From contig CAZFKS010000001.1 in the NCBI GenBank assembly GCA_964519725.1, positions 119,270 to 183,269 of the forward strand: a stretch of 64,000 nucleotides of DNA, given 5' to 3'. The DNA is from an uncultured Gammaproteobacteria bacterium. GTDB lineage: Bacteria; Patescibacteriota; Patescibacteriia; Magasanikbacterales; UBA922. The position numbers and the translations under genes were made by a program. A model generated the notes under the pieces. It was not told the origin of the DNA and searched no databases. It saw only the letters and a program-made list of their open reading frames with translations. Below, piece after piece: positions 4,288-49,245 of this stretch (the stretch's first letter is position 1; each line of letters opens with the position of its first letter).

Positions 4288-4318
4288 ATAAAAAAAGACC
4301 CGCTCTTGCGAGCGAGTC
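4288..4318 (-). terminator. Rho-independent terminator downstream of the RRM gene
   Basis: 9-bp stem with one mismatch (gacccgctc/gagcgagtc), loop ttgc. On the minus strand it is followed by a 7-T run. Confidence 0.5.
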
Positions 4319-4339
4319 CTTTGAATTCCAAACTAGAAA

Positions 4340-4618
4340 CTAGTTGCGGAAATCACGGCGAGGTGGGCGGTCTTCCTTTGGGCGAGCCATGCTCACGCGA
4401 AGTGGGCGACCGTCGAGGTCCTTACCGTCGAGCATATCAATGGCTTTCTGAGCTTCTTCTTCAGTAGACATGTCTACGAAAGCGAAACCACGAGAACGAC
4501 CAGTGAATTTGTCCATAACAATCTTAGCTGAAACTACAGTACCGGCAGCAGCAAAAGCAGCTGAAAGACTTTCGTCAGTTGATTGGTATGAGACGTTGCC
4601 GACATATAAAGTCTGCAT
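4340..4618 (-). CDS. RRM-type RNA-binding protein
   Basis: RNP2 LYVGNV and RNP1 RGFAFVDM motifs. 92 aa with a Gly/Arg/Pro-rich tail. Confidence 0.85.
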   Translation of the reverse strand: MQTLYVGNVSYQSTDESLSAAFAAAGTVVSAKIVMDKFTGRSRGFAFVDMSTEEEAQKAIDMLDGKDLDGRPLRVSMARPKEDRPPRRDFRN

Positions 4619-29966: not shown

Positions 29967-30878
29967 TTATTCCAGAGCCATCGCACCACCAGCAATTTCC
30001 GCAATTTCTTGCGTGATTGCAGCTTGACGAGCTTTGTTAAATTCTAAGGTTAATATCTTAATCATGTCACCGGCAGCAGAACTGGCATTTTTCATCGCCA
30101 CCATCCGCGCACTATGTTCACTGGCAGCCGATTCCAAAATGGCTTGGAATACTTGCACTTCAACGAGTCGTGGCAAAATACTTTCCGTCACTGCTTCAGG
30201 ACCTGGTTCAAATTCATATTCTGTTCGCAAATCAACCACTGGTGTAGGGCCATCATACACATCCCCAAGTAAAGCCTCCACATCCTCGGTGGTTACTGGG
30301 AGTAATTGACGAATACGTACTTCTTGGCGCAAACTAGAAACAAAGTCAGTGTAAATTACAAACACTTTGTCATATTTTTTTTCCAAAAATCCCGTGCGGG
30401 CCAGACCAGTAATTGGTGAAATATCAGCAAAACTTGGTTGCACTGGTAATTCGTCAAAAGCCGCAATTAAATTGTAACCATGTTTTTTAACAAACGCGGC
30501 ACTCTTGCGACCAACCCCAATCACATCGACATTTGTTTTGGCCACACCAATTTTTTCAGCAAGGAGTTTGTGAGCTTTTTTGAAAACATTAGAGTTAAAA
30601 CTGCCGCAAAGGCCCCGGTTTGAACTAATCAAAACCACCAGAACATTCTCCACCTTGCGCACTTCAGTGAGCGGAGTTTCTACATTTTCCATTTTGCTTA
30701 AGCGAAGCAAAAGATCGCGTGCCAAAGTCGCGTAAAGGCGGGTAGCAAGCGTGGCTTGCACGGCTTTACGCATTTTGGCAGCCGAGACCATTTCCATGGC
30801 CTTGGTCATTTTTTTGGTATTCTTGACCGACTTGATCCGCTGCTTAATTGCTTTGGTATTAATGGCCATATTAGGCAA
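29967..30878 (-). CDS. atpG: F0F1 ATP synthase subunit gamma
   Basis: 303 aa. N-terminal [25 protein letters not shown] and C-terminal [18 protein letters not shown] are gamma-subunit signatures. Confidence 0.9.
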
Positions 30879-32361
30879 AAAATTCGGTGGCGGCTTCTTT
30901 TAACGCATTCTCAGTTTCGCCGCTCCAATCACCACCAGCAATTTTATCCATTAATTGGATTTTACTGTTGTTTAGGAAAGCAACAAAAGCGTTTTGTTTA
31001 GTTTGGATTTCTTCCATAACAACTTTATCAAAGAAACCATTGTTGGCCGCGTAAATAACGGCAACTTGTTCGGCCACACTCATTGGCGCGTACTGTGGTT
31101 GTTTCAAAAGTTCAGTCACACGGCGACCACGTTCAATTTGTTTTTTAGTTTCTGGATCAAGGTCACTTGAGAATTGTGAGAAGGCTTCTAATTCACGGAA
31201 TTGAGCGAGTGCGAGTTTGAGTGAACCAGCCACTTTTTTCATTGGTTTAATTTGGGCTGAACCACCAACCCGTGACACTGACAAACCAACGTTTAAAGCA
31301 GGACGAATACCACGGAAGAATAAATCAGTTTCAAGGAAAATTTGACCGTCAGTAATTGAGATCACATTAGTTGGAATGTAAGCCGAAATATCACCAGCTT
31401 GAGTTTCAATAATTGGCAGCGCAGTAATTGAACCACCACCATTTTCTTTGTTCAAATTGCAAGCGCGTTCGAGTAAACGGGAGTGGAGATAAAACACGTC
31501 CCCTGGGTAAGCTTCACGTCCTGGTGGGCGGCGTAACAAGAGTGACATTTCGCGGTAAGCCCAAGCTTGCTTGGTCAAATCATCGTACACAATCAAAACA
31601 TCTTTGCCTTTGTCAGCAAAATATTCAGCCATGGTTACACCAGAGTATGGGGCCAAGTATGAAAGCGGAGCTGGTTCAGACGCGCCGGCCACAACCACAA
31701 TGGTGTAGTCCATGGCACCAGCTTCTTTTAATTTATTTACAACCCGAGCGACTTTTGATTCTTTTTGACCAACTGCCACATACACACAAACCACATTCTG
31801 GCCTTTTTGGTTAATGATCGCATCAATTGCCACTGCGGTTTTACCCGTTTGGCGGTCACCAATAATAAGCTCACGTTGCCCACGACCAACTGGAATGAGT
31901 GCATCAATCGCTTTAATACCAGTTTGCATTGGCCGGTTAACCGGTTCACGAGTCATTACGCCCGGTGCCACGCGTTCAATTGGGTAAAATTTATCAGCTT
32001 TAATCGCCGCACCACCATCAACCGGTTCACCCAGTGGATTTACCACGCGACCAATCAGTCCATCAGCTACTGGCACAGACATAATGCGGCCAGTACGCTT
32101 AACAGTATCCCCTTCTTTAATTTGTTTAAAATCACCCAGAATAATTGCACCAACAGTTTCTTCTTCAAGGTTAAGGGCTACCCCCATGGTGCCATTACCA
32201 AAATCAAGCATTTCTTGGGCCTGACATTTTGATAAGCCAGTCATGCGGGCAATACCATCACCAACTTCAATAACCGTGCCGATTTCTTGTACTTCAGCGG
32301 TTGGAGCAAATTGATCTAAATTTTTCTTCAGCGAGTTTAGTACAGTATCAGTGTAAGACAT
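30871..32361 (-). CDS. atpA: F0F1 ATP synthase subunit alpha
   Basis: [14 protein letters not shown]-loop, [46 protein letters not shown]. Confidence 0.95.
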
Positions 32362-40821: not shown

Positions 40822-42033
40822 TTACTCGCGACGGCGAAATAGTAACCACAAAAAGAGGACAAGTATAATTCCTCCTCCAGCTAAAACTGGAATTTTGTGG
40901 GCCAGGAAAAAATTTTGTGCTTGGAGTGAAAAACTTTCAGCGGGGATCAGCGGGGCTTTATCTTTTCCATCTGGTGTGCCATCTAAGTCAGTGTCTTCGG
41001 CTAGCGGATCAGTCCCCTTCACGGTTTCATCATGGTCAGAAATACCATCGTTGTCTGTGTCTGGAGTGCGTGGACTGGTACCAATTTTTTGTTCTTCAGT
41101 ATCAGGTAAATGATCATTATCATCGTCCAGATCAGCGTTATCCCCAGTTCCATCTTTGTCTGAGTCTTTATTTTCCTTTGGATCAAGCGGTAATTCATCC
41201 GCCCCATCATTCACACCATCGCCATCAGTATCAGCTTTGAGCGGATCAGTACCCTTGGCTTTTTCCGCCTCATCAGTCACACCATCATTATCATCATCAG
41301 GGTCAGTGTTGTCCCCAATTTTATCACCATCAATATCTTTTTGTTCTTTGGGATCAATTGGAAATAAATCATCTTTATCATTTACCCCATCACCGTCAGT
41401 GTCAGTCGCCATTGGGTTGGTTTTATTGTCTAATTCAGTGTTATCTGGAATGCCATCACCATCGGTGTCAGCTTTTTTTGGGTCAGTACCTAATTCTTTT
41501 TCGCGGTCATCAGTTAGACCGTCATTATCATCATCAGGGTCAGTGTTGTCACCAATTTTGTCATGGTCAGAATCAGCTTCAATGGTAAATTTTGATGGAG
41601 TTTGGGAAGATTGAATTTGATTGTCAGGTAGCACTTGTTTGTCGCCATTCGCTTGCAAACCAACCACACTAGTTAACCGCGCTGTCAAAGATAATTCACC
41701 CGCGGGCAAGGTATATTCGGCGGCCACTTGTTTAGCTTGCTCAAATAAAATTTTTTCAAATGGCACCTCAGCAATGACCTGATCATTATTATAAAACACC
41801 ACCTTCCCCGACACTGACGCAAAATCATTATTTACAATTACCGTGTAGAGTTTTACCACTTCTCCTTCCACCGCATTAGTTTTTGACAACCGTACAATTT
41901 GGTTAACAGCAAAATCAAACGCTGCCCAAGTTGTGACTGGGGCAAAAAATAATACTAAAGTACTCAATCCGACCAAATACTTAAGGCGTTTCATACTGGA
42001 GCTGACTAGGCGAAAGTGAAAATAGTATATCAC
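40822..42033 (-). CDS. secreted Ca-binding repeat protein (about 9 thrombospondin type-3-like DxDxDG repeats) with C-terminal hydrophobic anchor and RRRE tail
   Basis: Signal peptide. N-terminal about 150-aa beta-rich domain. Repeats DTDGDGV(N/P)D, DIDGDKIGDNTDPDDDNDG. C-terminus LAGGGIILVLFLWLLFRRRE. Confidence 0.7.
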   Translation of the reverse strand: MIYYFHFRLVSSSMKRLKYLVGLSTLVLFFAPVTTWAAFDFAVNQIVRLSKTNAVEGEVVKLYTVIVNNDFASVSGKVVFYNNDQVIAEVPFEKILFEQAKQVAAEYTLPAGELSLTARLTSVVGLQANGDKQVLPDNQIQSSQTPSKFTIEADSDHDKIGDNTDPDDDNDGLTDDREKELGTDPKKADTDGDGIPDNTELDNKTNPMATDTDGDGVNDKDDLFPIDPKEQKDIDGDKIGDNTDPDDDNDGVTDEAEKAKGTDPLKADTDGDGVNDGADELPLDPKENKDSDKDGTGDNADLDDDNDHLPDTEEQKIGTSPRTPDTDNDGISDHDETVKGTDPLAEDTDLDGTPDGKDKAPLIPAESFSLQAQNFFLAHKIPVLAGGGIILVLFLWLLFRRRE

Positions 42034-43546: not shown

Positions 43547-44120
43547 TCAGTGGGATCACGGCACTAATAACGGCAAAATATAACATTGCCTTGATCGTAG
43601 CCGACAGAGTTGAGAAATTACTACTACTTCCAGTTAGTTCAATATTTTTACCACTCACCGCGGCTGTTAAAATATTTTTCACAATCTCACGGTCAGTTTC
43701 GGTCAGAACAGAAATTACGAGGGGCACTTTTTTACCGGAATTTAAAGTGACCAGAGCCAGTAAACGCGGTACTCTCACTGTCACCCCATTTTGGGCCACA
43801 GTTCGGAGACTATTGGTAATCTCATAACTCTTAATTTCTTTAAGTGGGATTTTAGTCGACCAAACAATTTGATGTTGGACAATTTCAGCATTATTAACAC
43901 TAACCACTCCGTGAGCACGGACTCGACCCACAATTAAACCAGTTACCACCACGAGCAAGAACCACAGGGCCAATTTACTCATTTGAGAACTAGGATTTTT
44001 TAAAAATTCAATCAGCCAACTACCGCCCAGTAAGAATACTGCGAAAGTAAATAGCAAAGCAACGCTAATCACCAAAATATTATGGTACTCACTGCGAGTG
44101 TCAAAGATGAGGCCGGGCAT
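43527..44120 (-). CDS. hypothetical membrane protein (two N-terminal TM helices; possible bacterial PH/DUF304-like domain)
   Basis: 197 aa. 20-nt overlaps with both neighbours. No catalytic motif. Confidence 0.35.
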   Translation of the reverse strand: MPGLIFDTRSEYHNILVISVALLFTFAVFLLGGSWLIEFLKNPSSQMSKLALWFLLVVVTGLIVGRVRAHGVVSVNNAEIVQHQIVWSTKIPLKEIKSYEITNSLRTVAQNGVTVRVPRLLALVTLNSGKKVPLVISVLTETDREIVKNILTAAVSGKNIELTGSSSNFSTLSATIKAMLYFAVISAVIPLIVYGKK

Positions 44121-45603
44121 AGGCTTTTTTAAAAATGAGGTAGAGTAAAATTAAGTAGCTCGTGATTAATAGGGGCAAGGAAAATGAAACTGCGGGCGCG
44201 GCCCAACTAATTCCCCCAAACCATGAAACTACGCTAATAACATACCACATTCCCGCCCACCCAATCCAGGCCAGGGCCTGACCCACGTAAATATGGATTA
44301 AACTGCCAAGGAGGGCAGCAAAACCAGTGGCCATTAAAATTGGGATCACCCACAACACCGCAATGTTCACAAAAATAGTGAGTAGGGCAAGCCGACCAAA
44401 CTGAAATAAAATTAAGGGCAAAGTTGCAATCGTCGCAGCTGTGGTTGAAATAGTATTTTCCCTGAGACCAAATTTTTCTGGAAGCCAATTTAAGTAAGTT
44501 TCCAAAATTGGATTTAAATATACCAAACCCAAAGTGGCCAAAAATGAAAGTTGGAATCCAGCATCATACAGTAGCACCAATGGATTTTGTACTGTCATAA
44601 TCACAGCCGTGAGGAGTAACACCGGTCCAATTCGACTGACGCGCCCAACTTGTTTGGCCAAAAGCACAATAAAGCCCATAATTCCCGCCCGCATCACAGA
44701 AGCAGATGCGCCGGTAAAAATCACAAACACAAAAATATACAAACCAACCACATAAAAAGCGTGCCGCCGATTAATGCGGCAGTAATAACAGATTGATAAG
44801 AGTAAAGTCGCAATCACGGAAATATTAAATCCTGATACGGCCACAATGTGCGCGACTCCGGTTTTACTGAACAAATCATTGAGTGGCCCCAGTCCACCGC
44901 GATATCCGTAAAGTAATCCAGCCATAAAACTGGCATAGGGTTCTGGCCAGAGTGCTTCTAAGCGCAGCGCTAATTGATTTTTAAAAGCTAAAATATAGCT
45001 CATGACTGGGTTAGCTCCTCCACTGCCAATTTTAGTGAGGATTGGTTTTTGGCAGAGTGCAAAAATGTCTTGCCTGGCCAAAGCCAAGTCATACCGAAAC
45101 ACTTTTCCATTCACTTCATCAACAATTGGTTCTGGTTTTTTAATAGTGCAAGTAACCTTAAGAACATCGCCGTAATTAAACCGTGGATACCGATCAAAAA
45201 CCGCTAAAATATTACCCTCAATTTCACCTGGCCCAGCCCGGGCCTCGACGCTACTTGCGTCTAGCACATATCGCACTGAATCCAAGCGCACATCAGGTTC
45301 AGCGTTTACGGTTCCAATCAATTGAATATTTTGGTTATTAAACGCCTCAATTCTTCCAGTCTCACTAACTGGAAAGACTAATCCATAGCGATAAATTCCT
45401 AAACCAAAACTAGTAACGATTAATACTATGAATTTAATTTCTAGTTTTTTAATAAAAAATAAAATTAAAACAGACACCAAAACGGCAGATAAAATCCAAT
45501 TGGTTTTTCGAATGTCACTAATTGAGGCAACTATAGTGCCAATCAAAAAACTAAAAGAATAGATTGCAAAACGCCAGCTTTTTGAGGTTATTTTGTTTAT
45601 CAT
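44101..45603 (-). CDS. comEC: ComEC/Rec2 membrane channel part (DUF4131 + Competence domain), lacking the MBL domain
   Basis: 500 aa polytopic. Competence-domain motif KTGVAHIVAVSGFNISVIA. Confidence 0.8.
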   Translation of the reverse strand: MINKITSKSWRFAIYSFSFLIGTIVASISDIRKTNWILSAVLVSVLILFFIKKLEIKFIVLIVTSFGLGIYRYGLVFPVSETGRIEAFNNQNIQLIGTVNAEPDVRLDSVRYVLDASSVEARAGPGEIEGNILAVFDRYPRFNYGDVLKVTCTIKKPEPIVDEVNGKVFRYDLALARQDIFALCQKPILTKIGSGGANPVMSYILAFKNQLALRLEALWPEPYASFMAGLLYGYRGGLGPLNDLFSKTGVAHIVAVSGFNISVIATLLLSICYYCRINRRHAFYVVGLYIFVFVIFTGASASVMRAGIMGFIVLLAKQVGRVSRIGPVLLLTAVIMTVQNPLVLLYDAGFQLSFLATLGLVYLNPILETYLNWLPEKFGLRENTISTTAATIATLPLILFQFGRLALLTIFVNIAVLWVIPILMATGFAALLGSLIHIYVGQALAWIGWAGMWYVISVVSWFGGISWAAPAVSFSLPLLITSYLILLYLIFKKAYARPHL

Positions 45604-45620
45604 ATCTTGGCTGTAATATA

Positions 45621-45648
45621 TTGACTTTTATCTGGAATCTGCTATACT
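45621..45648 (+). promoter_or_regulatory. sigma70-like promoter with extended -10 (TTGACT-16-TGcTATACT) on the plus strand with no plus-strand gene downstream
   Basis: ttgact tttatctggaatctgc tatact. Predicted TSS about 45654. Confidence 0.4.
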
Positions 45649-45653
45649 GAATA

Positions 45654-45720
45654 ATGAAGTTCATCCTTCTGCCTGTGGCAGTCGAGATTCCTCACCCTCC
45701 GGTGAGGTTATTTTTTTATT
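45654..45720 (+). ncRNA. candidate about 65-nt sRNA (or leaderless 22-codon micro-ORF MKFILLPVAVEIPHPPVRLFFY) ending in an intrinsic terminator, convergent with the MazF-like gene
   Basis: Promoter at 45621-45648. Internal hairpin ctgcc-tgt-ggcag. Terminal hairpin cctcacc-ctcc-ggtgagg followed by ttatttttttatt. Confidence 0.3.
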
Positions 45721-46106
45721 AGAGTACACAGTAATTGCTTTAAATTTTCAGTCGTCTCTCTGCTAACAAATGAGAGTTTTCTTTTTAATCTTTTTCCATC
45801 AAGATACCGCGCTTGTGCTAGACAAGCGTACTGAACTCGCCCTCTGTCATCATGAAACCGTGCGTAATAATCTCCGAACTTCTCAGACGTAGTTAATGGG
45901 ATCACTAAGCAAGCGTCACCGTACACTTTTTGGATAATCAAAATCGGACGAAGAAATTCAGAACCCTTACCATCTAACTCAGTCGCTACATTTAAACCTA
46001 AATGTGCCCACCAAATTTGTCCAATTTTAAATTTTGGACAACCTTCGAAAGAGTTTACGGTTTTCTTTTTTTCATTCCATTCATTGAAATTTTTATAATT
46101 TTCCAT
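45708..46106 (-). CDS. MazF/PemK-like (Kid-fold) putative toxin, no adjacent antitoxin gene
   Basis: From internal ATG (MENYK...). FKIGQIWWAHLGLNVATELDGKGSEFLRPILIIQKVYGDACLVIPLTTS matches the MazF/PemK core (G.I...G.E..g.RP.lii....v.PlTt). The table ORF start upstream is a TTG overlapping leuS. Confidence 0.45.
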   Translation of the reverse strand: MENYKNFNEWNEKKKTVNSFEGCPKFKIGQIWWAHLGLNVATELDGKGSEFLRPILIIQKVYGDACLVIPLTTSEKFGDYYARFHDDRGRVQYACLAQARYLDGKRLKRKLSFVSRETTENLKQLLCTLIKK

Positions 46107-46176
46107 AGCAAAAAACACAGATCTAATCTGTATTTTCTTCCCTCCTTTAGAGAAGAAATATAGTAATTTTATTGTA

Positions 46177-46214
46177 AAACAAAACACTGCTCGATTCAAG
46201 CAGTGTTTTTTATT
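46177..46214. terminator. strong bidirectional hairpin terminator between leuS and the MazF-like gene
   Basis: Perfect 11-bp stem aaaacactgct/agcagtgtttt with 7-nt loop, flanked by an A-run and a T-run. Confidence 0.55.
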
Positions 46215-46248
46215 TTGTGTGTAAAAACTGTGCGCAAGCTGTGAACAA

Positions 46249-49245
46249 TCACACAACAATTGAAATCAAACGGCCTGGAACATAAATAAATTTCTTTGGT
46301 TCTTTACCTTCCAACCATTTTTGCACACCTTCATTTTCTAAAGCTAATTTTTTAATATCAGCTTCGGCAATGTCTGGTGATACTGTTAATTCAGCGCGAA
46401 CTTTACCATTAATTTGAATGGCGATTATCACTTCACTATCTTTGGCGAGTTCAGCATCATAAACCGGCCAAGTCGATTTAGAAACAGAATTTCCATCACC
46501 AAATTGGGCCCATAATTCTTCACCAATGTGCGGGGCAAACACTGACAACAATTTAATTAAAATTTGGTAATCAGTTTTTGCAATTTTTTCCTCAACACTC
46601 ATCGCGTTCGCCAGTTCCATTAATTTCGCCACCGAGGTATTGAAGCTCATGTTCTGAATATCATCAGTGACTTTTTTGATTGTTTGGTGAAGCTGAGTAA
46701 CCACTTTTTTATTGGTCGCCGCACTATCACTCACCTTTTCCTGTAAATTCCAAACCTTATCCAGGAACCGACGCACACCAACTAATCCATTGGTATCCCA
46801 TTCCACAGCTTGGTCAAATGGACCCATAAACATAATATAAGTGCGAAGCGCGTCTGCACCGTACAGTTCAACCATTTCATCTGGGTTCACCACGTTTCCC
46901 TTTGACTTACTCATCTTTTCACCGCCCTTGGCCAAAATCATGCCGTGACTGGTGCGTTTTTTGTATGGTTCGAGAGTTGGGACCACGCCAATGTCATACA
47001 AGAATTGATTCCAAAAACGGGAATACAACAAGTGTAAAACCGTGTGCTCCATTCCCCCATTGTACCAATCCACTTGATTCCAATAGCGTAAATTTGGATT
47101 AATCTTTTCAACCCACTCAGACAAGAAAGCAATTTTTTCTTGATTACTTTGGCCGTCTGACTCGTTTTTCTCAGTGTATTCGTAATGTGCCAAATTATAT
47201 TCTGGTGAAATAGTGCGGAAAGTAAAGCCCCACAAATTTCCCAAACACACTTCTGGTAAATCGCGAGCTTGCATTGGTTGTTTGGCACCTTGGTAAGTCA
47301 AACTATACATTTCGCCGTTCTCTTTCCAAACCGGAACAATTTCTACACGCACTCCATCTTTTTCGTACAGATCATTTTGGTTAAATGATTGAGTTAACCT
47401 ATAGCCTTGCTCCACCAAATAACTCGCAATCGCCGCCTTATCATCATTCCAAGCGACTAAACAAACCGTGCGCAATGGTGTCCACAAATTGCGGTTCAAG
47501 CCGTTCAAAAGTAAACGATTCCCAGTCCAAACTTTAATTCCCTTTTTCTCTAAATCTTGATATACCTGTTTAAAAGTAGCAAAATAAGCTTTATCTTTTT
47601 CGGTCGGTTCAATCGCTGGACGGAATTTAAAACCATCGGTACGGAATAAATCTTTCGCATTCTGCGGATCCATGTAGCGGAGGAAGTACCAACTTGACCC
47701 AGCCCAGTTAGGCATGGTGTCAGTTTCGCGGCGTGCCGGACCACCACACTTTGGACAAGTAGTTTTAACCCACTCAGTCATGGCCGCGATTGGCGACTCG
47801 CCAGTATCAGTTGGTAAATATTTTTCCACTTTTGGTAATTCGAGTGGTAATTCACTTTCTGGAAGTGGAATCCAACCATTACAATTTTCACAAAAAACCA
47901 AAGGAATCGGCTCACCCCAATACCGCTGACGCGAAAAGACCCAGTCACGGAGTTTGTACTGCACTTTGCGGTTACCAATTTTATTTTCTTCTAGCCAAGC
48001 AACCATTTTAGCTTTGGCCTCAACGGTTTCTAAGCCATTCAAAAAATCTGAATTAACAGCGAACCCAGCAGAAGTGAAGGCTTCAGTGGCAATATCACCA
48101 CCGGCAACCACTTCTACTTTTGGCAAATGATATTTACTCGCAAATTCAAAGTCGCGCTCATCATGCGCTGGTACCGCCATAATCGCGCCCGTACCATAAC
48201 CACCCAGGACATAATCAGCCACAAACATTGGAATTTGTTCGCCTGTAACCGGATTAATGGCTTTAACACCACGGAGTTCCACACCGGTCTTTTCTTTATC
48301 AAGCGCACTGCGCTCAATATCAGTTTTTTGTTTAGCAGCGTTAACATAAGCCAACACTTCGGCTTTGTTTTCCAAAACATCATGATTTTGATCAGTCGCC
48401 AAAGTCACCCACAAATGTTCAGGGGCAAGCACCAAATAGGTGGCACCAAACAGCGTGTCTGGACGCGTAGTAAATACAGTCAATTTTGCTTTTTCACCAT
48501 TTGGTCCACGACGATCATTATCAGCCGGATTTTTGGTAAAAAATAATTCAAAATTAATTTCTGCACCCTCACTCCGCCCAATCCAATTTTCCTGTTGAAT
48601 TTTGGCGCGAGAAATATAATCAACTTCATTTAAACCCGCGAGAAGTTTGTCAGCGTATTTGGTGATCGCGAGCATCCATTGTTCTTTATTCCGTTTTTCT
48701 ACTGGATTGCCACAACGCTCACAACAGCCATCAACCACTTCTTCATTAGCTAGACCAATTTTATCTTTTGGACACCAATTAATTGGCTGGTTGGCTTTGT
48801 AGGCCAAACCTTGTTTGTAAAGCTGCAAAAAAATCCACTGTGTCCATTTATAATATTCAGGTTCACTAGTAGTCACCGCGCGCGACCAATCAAAACCAAA
48901 CCCCAGCGCTTTTAATTGACGCGTAAAGTTCGCAATATTTTCAGCCGTAATTTCCGCTGGTGGCCGACCAGTTTTAATGGCAAAATTTTCAGTTGGCAGT
49001 CCAAACGAGTCAAACCCAATTGGATACAAAACATTTTTTCCTTCCATCCGTTTTTGGCGTGTAATTACATCCATGGCAGTGTAAGACCGCGGGTGTCCAA
49101 CGTGTAAACCAGCCCCACTTGGGTAAGGGAACTCAATCAGACCAAAAAATTTTTCTTTGGCCGGATCAGTTTCCACGCGAAAAGTCTGGTTATCTTCCCA
49201 GAATTTTTGCCACTTTGGTTCAATGGATTTTGGGTCGTACTTCAT
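46249..49245 (-). CDS. leuS: leucyl-tRNA synthetase (long form with extra insertion before the catalytic-core return)
   Basis: HIGH motif PYPSGAGLHVGHP, KMSKS motif KMSKSKGN, CP1 editing domain. 998 aa. Confidence 0.95.
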   Translation of the reverse strand: MKYDPKSIEPKWQKFWEDNQTFRVETDPAKEKFFGLIEFPYPSGAGLHVGHPRSYTAMDVITRQKRMEGKNVLYPIGFDSFGLPTENFAIKTGRPPAEITAENIANFTRQLKALGFGFDWSRAVTTSEPEYYKWTQWIFLQLYKQGLAYKANQPINWCPKDKIGLANEEVVDGCCERCGNPVEKRNKEQWMLAITKYADKLLAGLNEVDYISRAKIQQENWIGRSEGAEINFELFFTKNPADNDRRGPNGEKAKLTVFTTRPDTLFGATYLVLAPEHLWVTLATDQNHDVLENKAEVLAYVNAAKQKTDIERSALDKEKTGVELRGVKAINPVTGEQIPMFVADYVLGGYGTGAIMAVPAHDERDFEFASKYHLPKVEVVAGGDIATEAFTSAGFAVNSDFLNGLETVEAKAKMVAWLEENKIGNRKVQYKLRDWVFSRQRYWGEPIPLVFCENCNGWIPLPESELPLELPKVEKYLPTDTGESPIAAMTEWVKTTCPKCGGPARRETDTMPNWAGSSWYFLRYMDPQNAKDLFRTDGFKFRPAIEPTEKDKAYFATFKQVYQDLEKKGIKVWTGNRLLLNGLNRNLWTPLRTVCLVAWNDDKAAIASYLVEQGYRLTQSFNQNDLYEKDGVRVEIVPVWKENGEMYSLTYQGAKQPMQARDLPEVCLGNLWGFTFRTISPEYNLAHYEYTEKNESDGQSNQEKIAFLSEWVEKINPNLRYWNQVDWYNGGMEHTVLHLLYSRFWNQFLYDIGVVPTLEPYKKRTSHGMILAKGGEKMSKSKGNVVNPDEMVELYGADALRTYIMFMGPFDQAVEWDTNGLVGVRRFLDKVWNLQEKVSDSAATNKKVVTQLHQTIKKVTDDIQNMSFNTSVAKLMELANAMSVEEKIAKTDYQILIKLLSVFAPHIGEELWAQFGDGNSVSKSTWPVYDAELAKDSEVIIAIQINGKVRAELTVSPDIAEADIKKLALENEGVQKWLEGKEPKKFIYVPGRLISIVV

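Follow-up and report, generated by a model that had tools for sequence, protein, structure and literature searches.

What restrains a MazF toxin that has no antitoxin gene beside it? The question is raised by a locus in a 64,000-nt stretch of contig CAZFKS010000001.1 (positions 119,270 to 183,269 of the forward strand; this whole stretch is called the window below) from an uncultured bacterium placed by GTDB among the Patescibacteriota (Magasanikbacterales, UBA922). Here the gene for a MazF/PemK-family endoribonuclease toxin is faced, from the opposite strand, by a short promoter-terminator unit, which a first-pass annotation made from the sequence alone had put forward as a convergent small RNA (sRNA) and a candidate regulator of the toxin. 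Comparison with homologous loci confirmed a genuine sRNA gene in this unit, one that is conserved and accompanies the toxin from locus to locus. Very likely its RNA serves as the antitoxin, a function that we infer from the comparative sequence analysis described below. The locus belongs to a large and uncurated family that combines a MazF toxin with a convergent structured sRNA, a variant of RNA-antitoxin systems with a probable experimental precedent in Campylobacter jejuni.

A solo MazF toxin

45708-46106, minus strand: gene for the MazF/PemK-family endoribonuclease toxin, 132 aa, N-terminus MENYK

The first-pass annotation had described the product of this open reading frame (ORF) as MazF-like, which a PemK/MazF profile search and a fold model bear out. 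The Pfam family PF02452 (PemK_toxin) matches residues 29-129 of the window toxin (31.3 bits versus a cut-off of 23.1, E=2.5e-7), and a PDB profile search carried out with this protein and 13 relatives retrieved the MazF of Staphylococcus aureus and EndoA/YdcE of Bacillus subtilis at ~1e-7. The AlphaFold2 model of the window toxin has a pLDDT of 77, and the top 50 PDB structures reported for it by Foldseek are all MazF, EndoA or MoxT. In the alignment of the toxin family (A1) R53-P54 and P70-L71 are invariant and T72 is nearly so; the PDB profile search aligned the Arg residue with the RPV motif of S. aureus MazF. We take R53 and T72 (of the RP and PLT motifs) to be the counterparts of the catalytic residues of E. 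coli MazF, presumably numbered R29 and T52 in that protein. Family assignment and predicted fold together confirm the product as a MazF-fold toxin, with the putative catalytic Arg and Thr conserved. The window toxin gave no match at E<=1 among the NCBIfam named families or in PADLOC.

A clade-specific N-terminal helix, F7-x2-W10-N-E-K-K-K, is invariant across the family in the same alignment and falls outside the region that can be aligned to solved MazF structures. The C-terminus (...LIKK*) is kept within the window clade, which comprises the window and the homologous loci L001, L002, L012, L161 and L162.

The lack of an antitoxin-sized partner gene, also pointed out in the first-pass annotation, holds both in the window and among its relatives. 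None of the ORFs of the window qualifies as an antitoxin-sized partner, and there is no MazE-like gene next to the toxin. Scans of species-representative genomes and metagenomes yielded 148 further loci, with 118 non-redundant loci left after the removal of duplicates; an all-against-all BLAST search for a protein antitoxin among ORFs of at least 35 aa within -800/+600 nt of these 118 loci returned just shadow ORFs of the toxin. As judged from these sequence comparisons, the toxin is confirmed to be solo here and throughout its family.

The convergent small RNA gene

45621-45648, plus strand: sRNA promoter (TTGACT at 45621-45626, 16-nt spacer, TGc, TATACT at 45643-45648)
45656-45717, plus strand: sRNA unit of ~62 nt, made up of 13 unpaired nt at the 5' end, two hairpins and a U-tract
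45656-45668, plus strand: single-stranded 5' segment GAAGUUCAUCCUU
45669-45681, plus strand: hairpin A, stem CUGC/GCAG with a variable loop, as defined in the alignment of covariance model R3
45682-45689, plus strand: linker UCGAGAUU, with its GAGAUU portion conserved
45690-45707, plus strand: hairpin B, the terminator stem CCUCACC-CUCC-GGUGAGG
45708-45717, plus strand: terminator U-tract UUAUUUUUUU, complementary to the toxin stop codon and the last two Lys codons

The promoter, present as read in the first-pass annotation, scores 10/12 and carries in addition the extended -10 TG; transcription would be expected to start at about 45654-45656. The DNA directly 3' of hairpin B reads TTATTTTTTT. 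The unit and its terminator are real, with one correction: the terminator hairpin does not overlap the toxin stop codon, as had been supposed. Hairpin B stops one base short of it, and it is the U-tract at 45708-45717 that makes the overlap.

Viewed alone, the window has no more promoter-like sites than chance would give, with 3 found versus 4.0 +/- 2.1 expected; for terminators the figures are 2 versus 0.7 +/- 1.0. The significance of the promoter-terminator unit comes from the comparison with other loci. Model R3 matches the window exactly once, at 45656-45717, with 88 bits. A match of another model, R2, at 4292-4340 (minus strand) was considered as a second copy and rejected, as it is an ordinary GCAA-loop terminator that follows an RNA-binding-protein gene; this cross-match indicates that hairpin B resembles the standard terminators of the window genome. 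The gene upstream of that terminator (4340-4618, minus strand) encodes a 92-aa protein resembling RRM-type RNA-binding proteins. We also rejected a 15-nt direct repeat, TGAGGTTATTTT(G/T)TT at 45583-45597 and 45703-45717, which brackets the sRNA gene and has one copy within the first codons of the comEC gene: it is conserved in neither L001 nor L002 and is probably due to chance.

Conservation of the toxin-RNA pair

Nearly all homologous loci belong to Patescibacteria (Magasanikbacteria, Saccharibacteria, Paceibacterota, Gracilibacteria, Peribacteria and others); other phyla contributed a few, one of them on a 1.29-Mb alphaproteobacterial contig. The toxin-RNA pairing recurs in more than a hundred genomes besides that of the window. 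The toxin clade as a whole amounts to ~1,800 clusters at 50% identity (E<=1e-10), mostly from Patescibacteria, and has members also on plasmids of Campylobacter, Helicobacter and Nitratiruptor and on prophages. The contexts of the toxin gene include leuS-mazF-comEC (L001, L002, L161, L162), yceG-mazF-queA (L003-L006) and the neighborhood of murJ (L007-L010). In every one of these contexts two hairpins with compensatory substitutions lie just 3' of the toxin stop codon; beyond them come a brief stretch of conserved sequence and a promoter directed at the toxin gene.

With the promoter defined as TTGAC-N17-19-TAnnnT on the antisense strand within ~125 nt of the toxin stop codon, 97 of the 118 non-redundant loci possess it, compared to 0/118 on the sense strand and 0.9% of random windows from those loci. 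Hairpin A begins 12 nt past the -10 box in 43/81 loci. Where toxin paralogues stand in tandem (three in L096, 481-2864; two in L042, 98-1601), each is accompanied by its own RNA element. A few matches to the RNA element have no toxin directly upstream (L095, 2943-2982; L106, 561-604; L066, 2904-2953; L072, 4613-4659); these orphan copies sit just upstream of a toxin gene or 1.2 kb away, and may be remnants of lost modules.

RNA structure and covariation

MAFFT alignments of the RNA (A2-A4) were structurally inconsistent, and gapless seeds (A5, A7, A8) were rebuilt for three covariance models, nearly all of whose matches lie a short way past a toxin gene and on its antisense strand. At E<=0.01 models R1 and R2 match at the expected position in 58/99 loci; further RNA sub-types were covered by model R3 and by inspection by eye. 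The resulting alignments support the proposed helices as follows:

Alignment A6 (model R1): 98% of cells paired, 27 cells changed on both sides
Alignment A9 (model R2): 96.5% of cells paired, 128 cells changed on both sides
Alignment A10 (model R3): 99% of cells paired, 24 cells changed on both sides

In the model R3 alignment 9 of the 11 pairs of both helices show changes on both sides. None of 500 column shuffles reached the observed pairing percentage, number of both-side changes or covariation score, and in slid controls, with partners shifted by 1-3 columns, pairing drops to 33-62%. The structure is also strand-specific: the UUCG loop of hairpin A (cUUCGg; 50/81 loci) and the GNRA loop of hairpin B (42/81) occur on the antisense strand only, the RNA strand out-folds its complement in 69/81 loci, and hairpin B of L001 contains a U-G pair where the toxin-sense strand would have C opposite A.

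All six members of the window clade have the 5' segment GAAGUUCAUCCUU without a single change, and its GAAGUU is common also to L003, L007, L079, L081 and L163. Within the window clade hairpin A has the form CUGC-N5-GCAG, with a loop that is free to vary, and the linker reads nUGAGAUU. The CCUCACC/GGUGAGG stem of hairpin B is replaced in some relatives by CCUCGCC/GGCGAGG, a compensatory exchange of A-U to G-C, and the CUCC loop found in the window shows no conservation in relatives. The RNA of the majority group consists of ACAA(A/G)UGG, GGC-UUCG-GCC, UC and GCCCC-GCAA-GGGGC; GGCUUCGGCC and the 5' ACAA(A/G)UGG are nearly invariant across lineages with toxins ~35-40% identical to that of the window. 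In the majority group a third, long hairpin is formed from the last 8-10 toxin codons, with A and U runs at its flanks, and is a predicted bidirectional terminator common to both convergent transcripts.

Searches against Rfam returned two tRNAs only for the window, with nothing credible at E<=10 in 45500-46300, and tRNAs only for 20 homologous loci. Tandem Repeats Finder reported no tandem repeats in 45300-46500, where direct repeats are limited to chance-like two-copy families; since the RNA gene is moreover downstream and convergent, the type III architecture is absent from the locus.

The counterpart on the Campylobacter jejuni plasmid pVir

When plasmid and phage collections were searched at the translated level, homologues of the toxin with the NCBI annotation "type II ... 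PemK/MazF family toxin" came up on plasmids of Campylobacter, Helicobacter and Nitratiruptor and in CJIE4 prophages. The homologue on pVir of C. jejuni 81-176, pVir0047 (30634-31038, plus strand; 37% identity), is the sole annotated toxin there and is likewise solo; its N-terminal motif FDEWNEVKK matches that of the clade. The minus strand of pVir encodes the sRNA CJpv3 (31119 to 31043, 77 nt, orientation ><>), detected by Northern blot (Dugar et al. 2013, PMC3656092 Table S12), which terminates 5 nt past the toxin stop codon. The step height of its start site is 16164, the top value of the plasmid, versus 28 for the toxin start site at 30608 (PMC3656092 Table S5), which makes the CJpv3 start-site signal ~580-fold that of the toxin mRNA. 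The PLSDB gene table for this plasmid (L160, NC_008770) leaves an 865-nt gap after the toxin gene (31038-31903); since pVir0048, a gene of 393 nt with its start site at 31257, falls inside it according to Dugar et al. (2013, PMC3656092), the table is incomplete in this region. The homologues on the Nitratiruptor plasmid and in the CJIE4 prophages have a convergent extended -10 promoter and hairpins likewise.

The pVir0047/CJpv3 pair resembles that of the window in its homologous solo toxin, its convergent sRNA with an extended -10 promoter and several hairpins, and the position of the RNA end at the toxin stop codon. CJpv3 differs, however, in having three hairpins, no clear U-tract and no detectable similarity of RNA sequence or model: R3 had no match at E<=1 in a pVir-type locus (L159), and by eye CJpv3 is unlike the window-type RNA. 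The hosts differ as well, a plasmid of Campylobacterota versus a chromosome of Patescibacteria. According to papers that cite Shen et al. 2016 (Mol Microbiol 101:909), pVir carries a type I pair, cjrA/cjpT, whose antitoxin CjrA is an antisense RNA. Probably cjpT is pVir0047 and cjrA is CJpv3, although this correspondence is ours and unverified; cjpT, pVir0047 and CJpv3 are not mentioned in the texts of the papers covered by our search.

Proposed function and alternatives

Several features make the RNA very likely to be the antitoxin: no other partner of the toxin is conserved, the RNA occurs in one copy per toxin gene, its strong promoter is set against weak expression signals of the toxin, the modules occur in mobile contexts, and an RNA antitoxin has been reported on pVir. 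As for its mode of action, we consider the chances about evenly balanced that the plus-strand unit at 45621-45717 encodes a ~62-nt RNA antitoxin acting on the solo MazF toxin primarily as a cis-antisense RNA. For the C. jejuni homologue transcription and abundance of the RNA were observed directly; toxicity of the protein, its neutralization and the manner in which this occurs are what we infer.

In this preferred model the near-consensus promoter would provide the sRNA in large excess over the toxin mRNA. The toxin itself would be kept low by a weak promoter, by an attenuator-like leader hairpin in the window clade and by the want of a Shine-Dalgarno sequence close to its start codon. The convergent arrangement would put the sRNA terminator on the toxin stop codon and make the sRNA complementary to the 3' end of the toxin transcript; as the window toxin lacks a terminator of its own, the whole sRNA would be complementary to the 3' untranslated region of the toxin mRNA. 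Type I-like control of the fate of this mRNA would then be the primary mode, with direct binding of the RNase as a serious second possibility. The antisense mode has the following in its favor: contact between sRNA terminator and toxin stop codon without exception, the bidirectional terminator common to both genes in the majority group, the full complementarity to the RNA that read-through transcripts of the window toxin would have for want of a terminator of their own, and the type I label of the C. jejuni system.

Other observations weigh against it. The sRNA of the window overlaps the toxin ORF by just ~10 nt, and an antisense effect requires toxin transcripts that read past the stop codon. 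Hairpins A and B of the majority group lie outside the terminator overlap and yet are the best-conserved part, which fits a protein-binding role better than pure antisense. Folding energy in the window does not favor the plus strand (-19.8 versus -22.6 kcal/mol). There is no pairing between the RNA and the start site of the toxin, mean duplex energies being -13.5 for cognate, -13.4 for non-cognate and -13.1 for shuffled pairs. Finally, the experimental support comes from the C. jejuni homologue, and the function in the window organism would follow by analogy. Pairing with the Shine-Dalgarno or start-site region was rejected as a mechanism, given that cognate energies equal those of controls, Shine-Dalgarno-like 4-mers are rare and the CUCC loop is unconserved.

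The alternative that survives best, though we regard it as clearly less probable than the antisense mode, is type III-like: the folded sRNA would bind the MazF dimer and block its RNA groove as a pseudo-substrate or product mimic. As parts of this proposal the 5' single strand would occupy the groove, hairpin A would serve as an anchor and the N-terminal Trp/Lys helix as a docking site. It would account for the conservation of RNA sequence and structure beyond any overlap with the toxin mRNA (5' strand, hairpin A and linker in the majority group), for a 5' motif that differs by toxin clade (GAAGUU in the window clade), for the absence of complementarity to the toxin translation start, and for an invariant FxxWNEKKK helix located outside the MazF-aligned region of a protein that belongs to a class of RNA-binding enzymes; ToxN-type toxins of type III systems have the Kid/MazF fold. 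However, the RNA has no tandem repeats and is not encoded upstream on the toxin strand, its terminator always touches the toxin stop codon, which is needless for a purely protein-binding RNA, and the papers citing the C. jejuni system place it in type I. In a further-reaching form of this reading, of similar probability, the MazF clade would have put a structured RNA, present as a single copy and binding the toxin directly, in the place of MazE. The conserved 5' single strand, which begins at the transcription start or adjacent to it, might then be an uncleavable product mimic in the substrate groove, and the cUUCGg and GNRA hairpins might dock on the FxxWNEKKK helix.

We find it unlikely that the pair is not a toxin-antitoxin system at all, with the MazF-like protein serving as a housekeeping or defense RNase and the sRNA as its substrate, cofactor or guide, or as an unrelated trans-acting regulator. 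The pair is indeed very widespread in the reduced genomes of Patescibacteria and the RNA structure is conserved, but the gene context is variable, the module may be multi-copy or tandem, homologues reside on plasmids and prophages with a patchiness typical of selfish toxin-antitoxin modules and not of housekeeping genes, and an RNA antitoxin is described for pVir in the papers mentioned above.

Still more improbable is that the convergent promoter and hairpins merely shield comEC from toxin read-through and produce no functional RNA. Hairpin B with its U-tract does look like the ordinary terminators of the window genome, as seen from the R2 cross-match at 4292-4340, but it acts on the plus strand and not on that of the toxin. 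A near-consensus promoter at a fixed distance, a conserved 5' sequence and strand-specific tetraloops are unneeded for insulation, and at the homologous position of pVir the RNA accumulates as a discrete 77-nt species (CJpv3). The leaderless 22-aa hydrophobic peptide MKFILLPVAVEIPHPPVRLFFY, which the first-pass annotation had offered as a possible antitoxin or regulator, can be dismissed in that role: its ORF exists (45654-45722) with an ATG at about the expected transcription start, but this ATG is replaced in L001 (ATC), L162 (CTG) and L012 (TAG), other clades have no such ORF, the stop codon lies beyond the terminator U-tract, and the substitutions compensate base pairs and are not codon-like.

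Relationship to known toxin-antitoxin systems

Type I systems with a convergent 3' overlap include par of pAD1 (Fst, RNA I/RNA II) as well as txpA/RatA and bsrG/SR4 of B. subtilis. The antisense model likens the present pair to them in the convergent cis-encoded sRNA, the terminator at the 3' end of the toxin gene and the strong antitoxin promoter opposed to weak toxin expression. Type I toxins are typically small hydrophobic peptides, with exceptions such as SymE and RalR; the toxins of the systems named are small membrane peptides, whereas that of the window is not a small hydrophobic protein but a soluble 132-aa RNase of the MazF fold. Further, the RNA described here is structured and conserved beyond the overlap, and does not pair with the start site.

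ToxIN, CptIN and TenpIN likewise combine an RNA antitoxin, here a probable one, with an endoribonuclease of a fold related to Kid/MazF, and the window clade resembles them further in a terminator-like hairpin between the toxin promoter and the gene. In contrast to those systems, where tandem repeats precede the toxin gene on its own strand, the RNA gene is single-copy, convergent and downstream. Unlike ToxN and AbiQ, the window toxin is a bona fide Pfam member of the PemK/MazF family and has no PADLOC match. It has its fold and catalytic Arg and Thr in common with the toxins of mazEF, pemIK and kis-kid; it differs from them in the extra conserved N-terminal helix, and its family has no MazE-like gene.

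MazF is the textbook type II toxin, and its homologues are labelled "type II" in databases. For the toxins of this clade that label is probably wrong: control of the toxin throughout the clade appears to lie with a small RNA and not with a protein, which would explain the "orphan" look of these toxins and flags a probable systematic mis-annotation of the type of toxin-antitoxin system. A further outcome is a structured RNA family, so far uncurated, that covaries strongly and has no Rfam match; the analysis also connects CJpv3, a highly expressed and unexplained plasmid sRNA of C. jejuni, to a conserved partner gene. The toxin with or without the 60-nt RNA would be a simple test case for the neutralization of an RNase toxin by RNA. 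If the RNA did bind the toxin, the pairs would represent a new architecture of protein-targeting RNA antitoxins that links type II MazF with type III ToxN, and the main form of toxin-antitoxin system in Patescibacteria.

Toxin expression signals and neighboring genes

46249-49245, minus strand: leuS, upstream neighbor of the toxin gene
46181-46209, both strands: leuS terminator hairpin, 11 pairs, with A/T runs on either side
46171-46199, minus strand: candidate weak toxin promoter (TTGAAT, 17-nt spacer, TACAAT), scoring 9/12
46110-46158, minus strand: toxin 5' leader with two hairpins and U6
44101-45603, minus strand: ComEC-like gene, downstream neighbor of the toxin gene

The 11-bp hairpin terminator that the first-pass annotation had placed between leuS and the toxin gene is indeed present, and relatives carry in it a compensatory change of CACTGC/GCAGTG to CACTAC/GTAGTG. 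Its loop holds TTGAA, the candidate -35 box of the toxin. TTGAA together with TACAGT/TACAAT is kept in L002, L161 and L162, and L001 has the weaker TACCTT.

In the leader transcribed from this candidate promoter the hairpin at 46134-46158 pairs UUUCUUCUC with GGGAAGAAA and sequesters GGAGGG, the sole GGAGG of the leader. A second hairpin occupies 46117-46131, and the U6 run after it (46110-46115) ends three bases short of the toxin AUG; from its sequence, this hairpin looks like a leader attenuator. L001, L002, L161 and L162 have a hairpin with U6 at the equivalent position, with stem sequences that differ. A Shine-Dalgarno-like 4-mer at -20 to -4 was found in just 4/79 toxin homologues, and the start codons of many homologues are preceded by A-rich sequence.

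The leuS product of the window is 998 aa long and has an apparent internal insertion. In L002 (1-3853) the called leuS product is 1444 aa long and has Pfam matches to NUDIX and hydrolase families, an unusual fusion. The interval between the leuS stop codon and its terminator (46215-46250) contains CACAG-type pentamers with 11-nt phasing, with four copies in L001; these pentamers are conserved solely in the syntenic clade (upstream regions of L001, L002, L161 and L162). Elsewhere in the window, a 403-aa ORF (40822-42033, minus strand) has hydrophobic N- and C-terminal segments and repeated D-x-D-G-D / DDDNDG motifs that resemble calcium-binding repeats.

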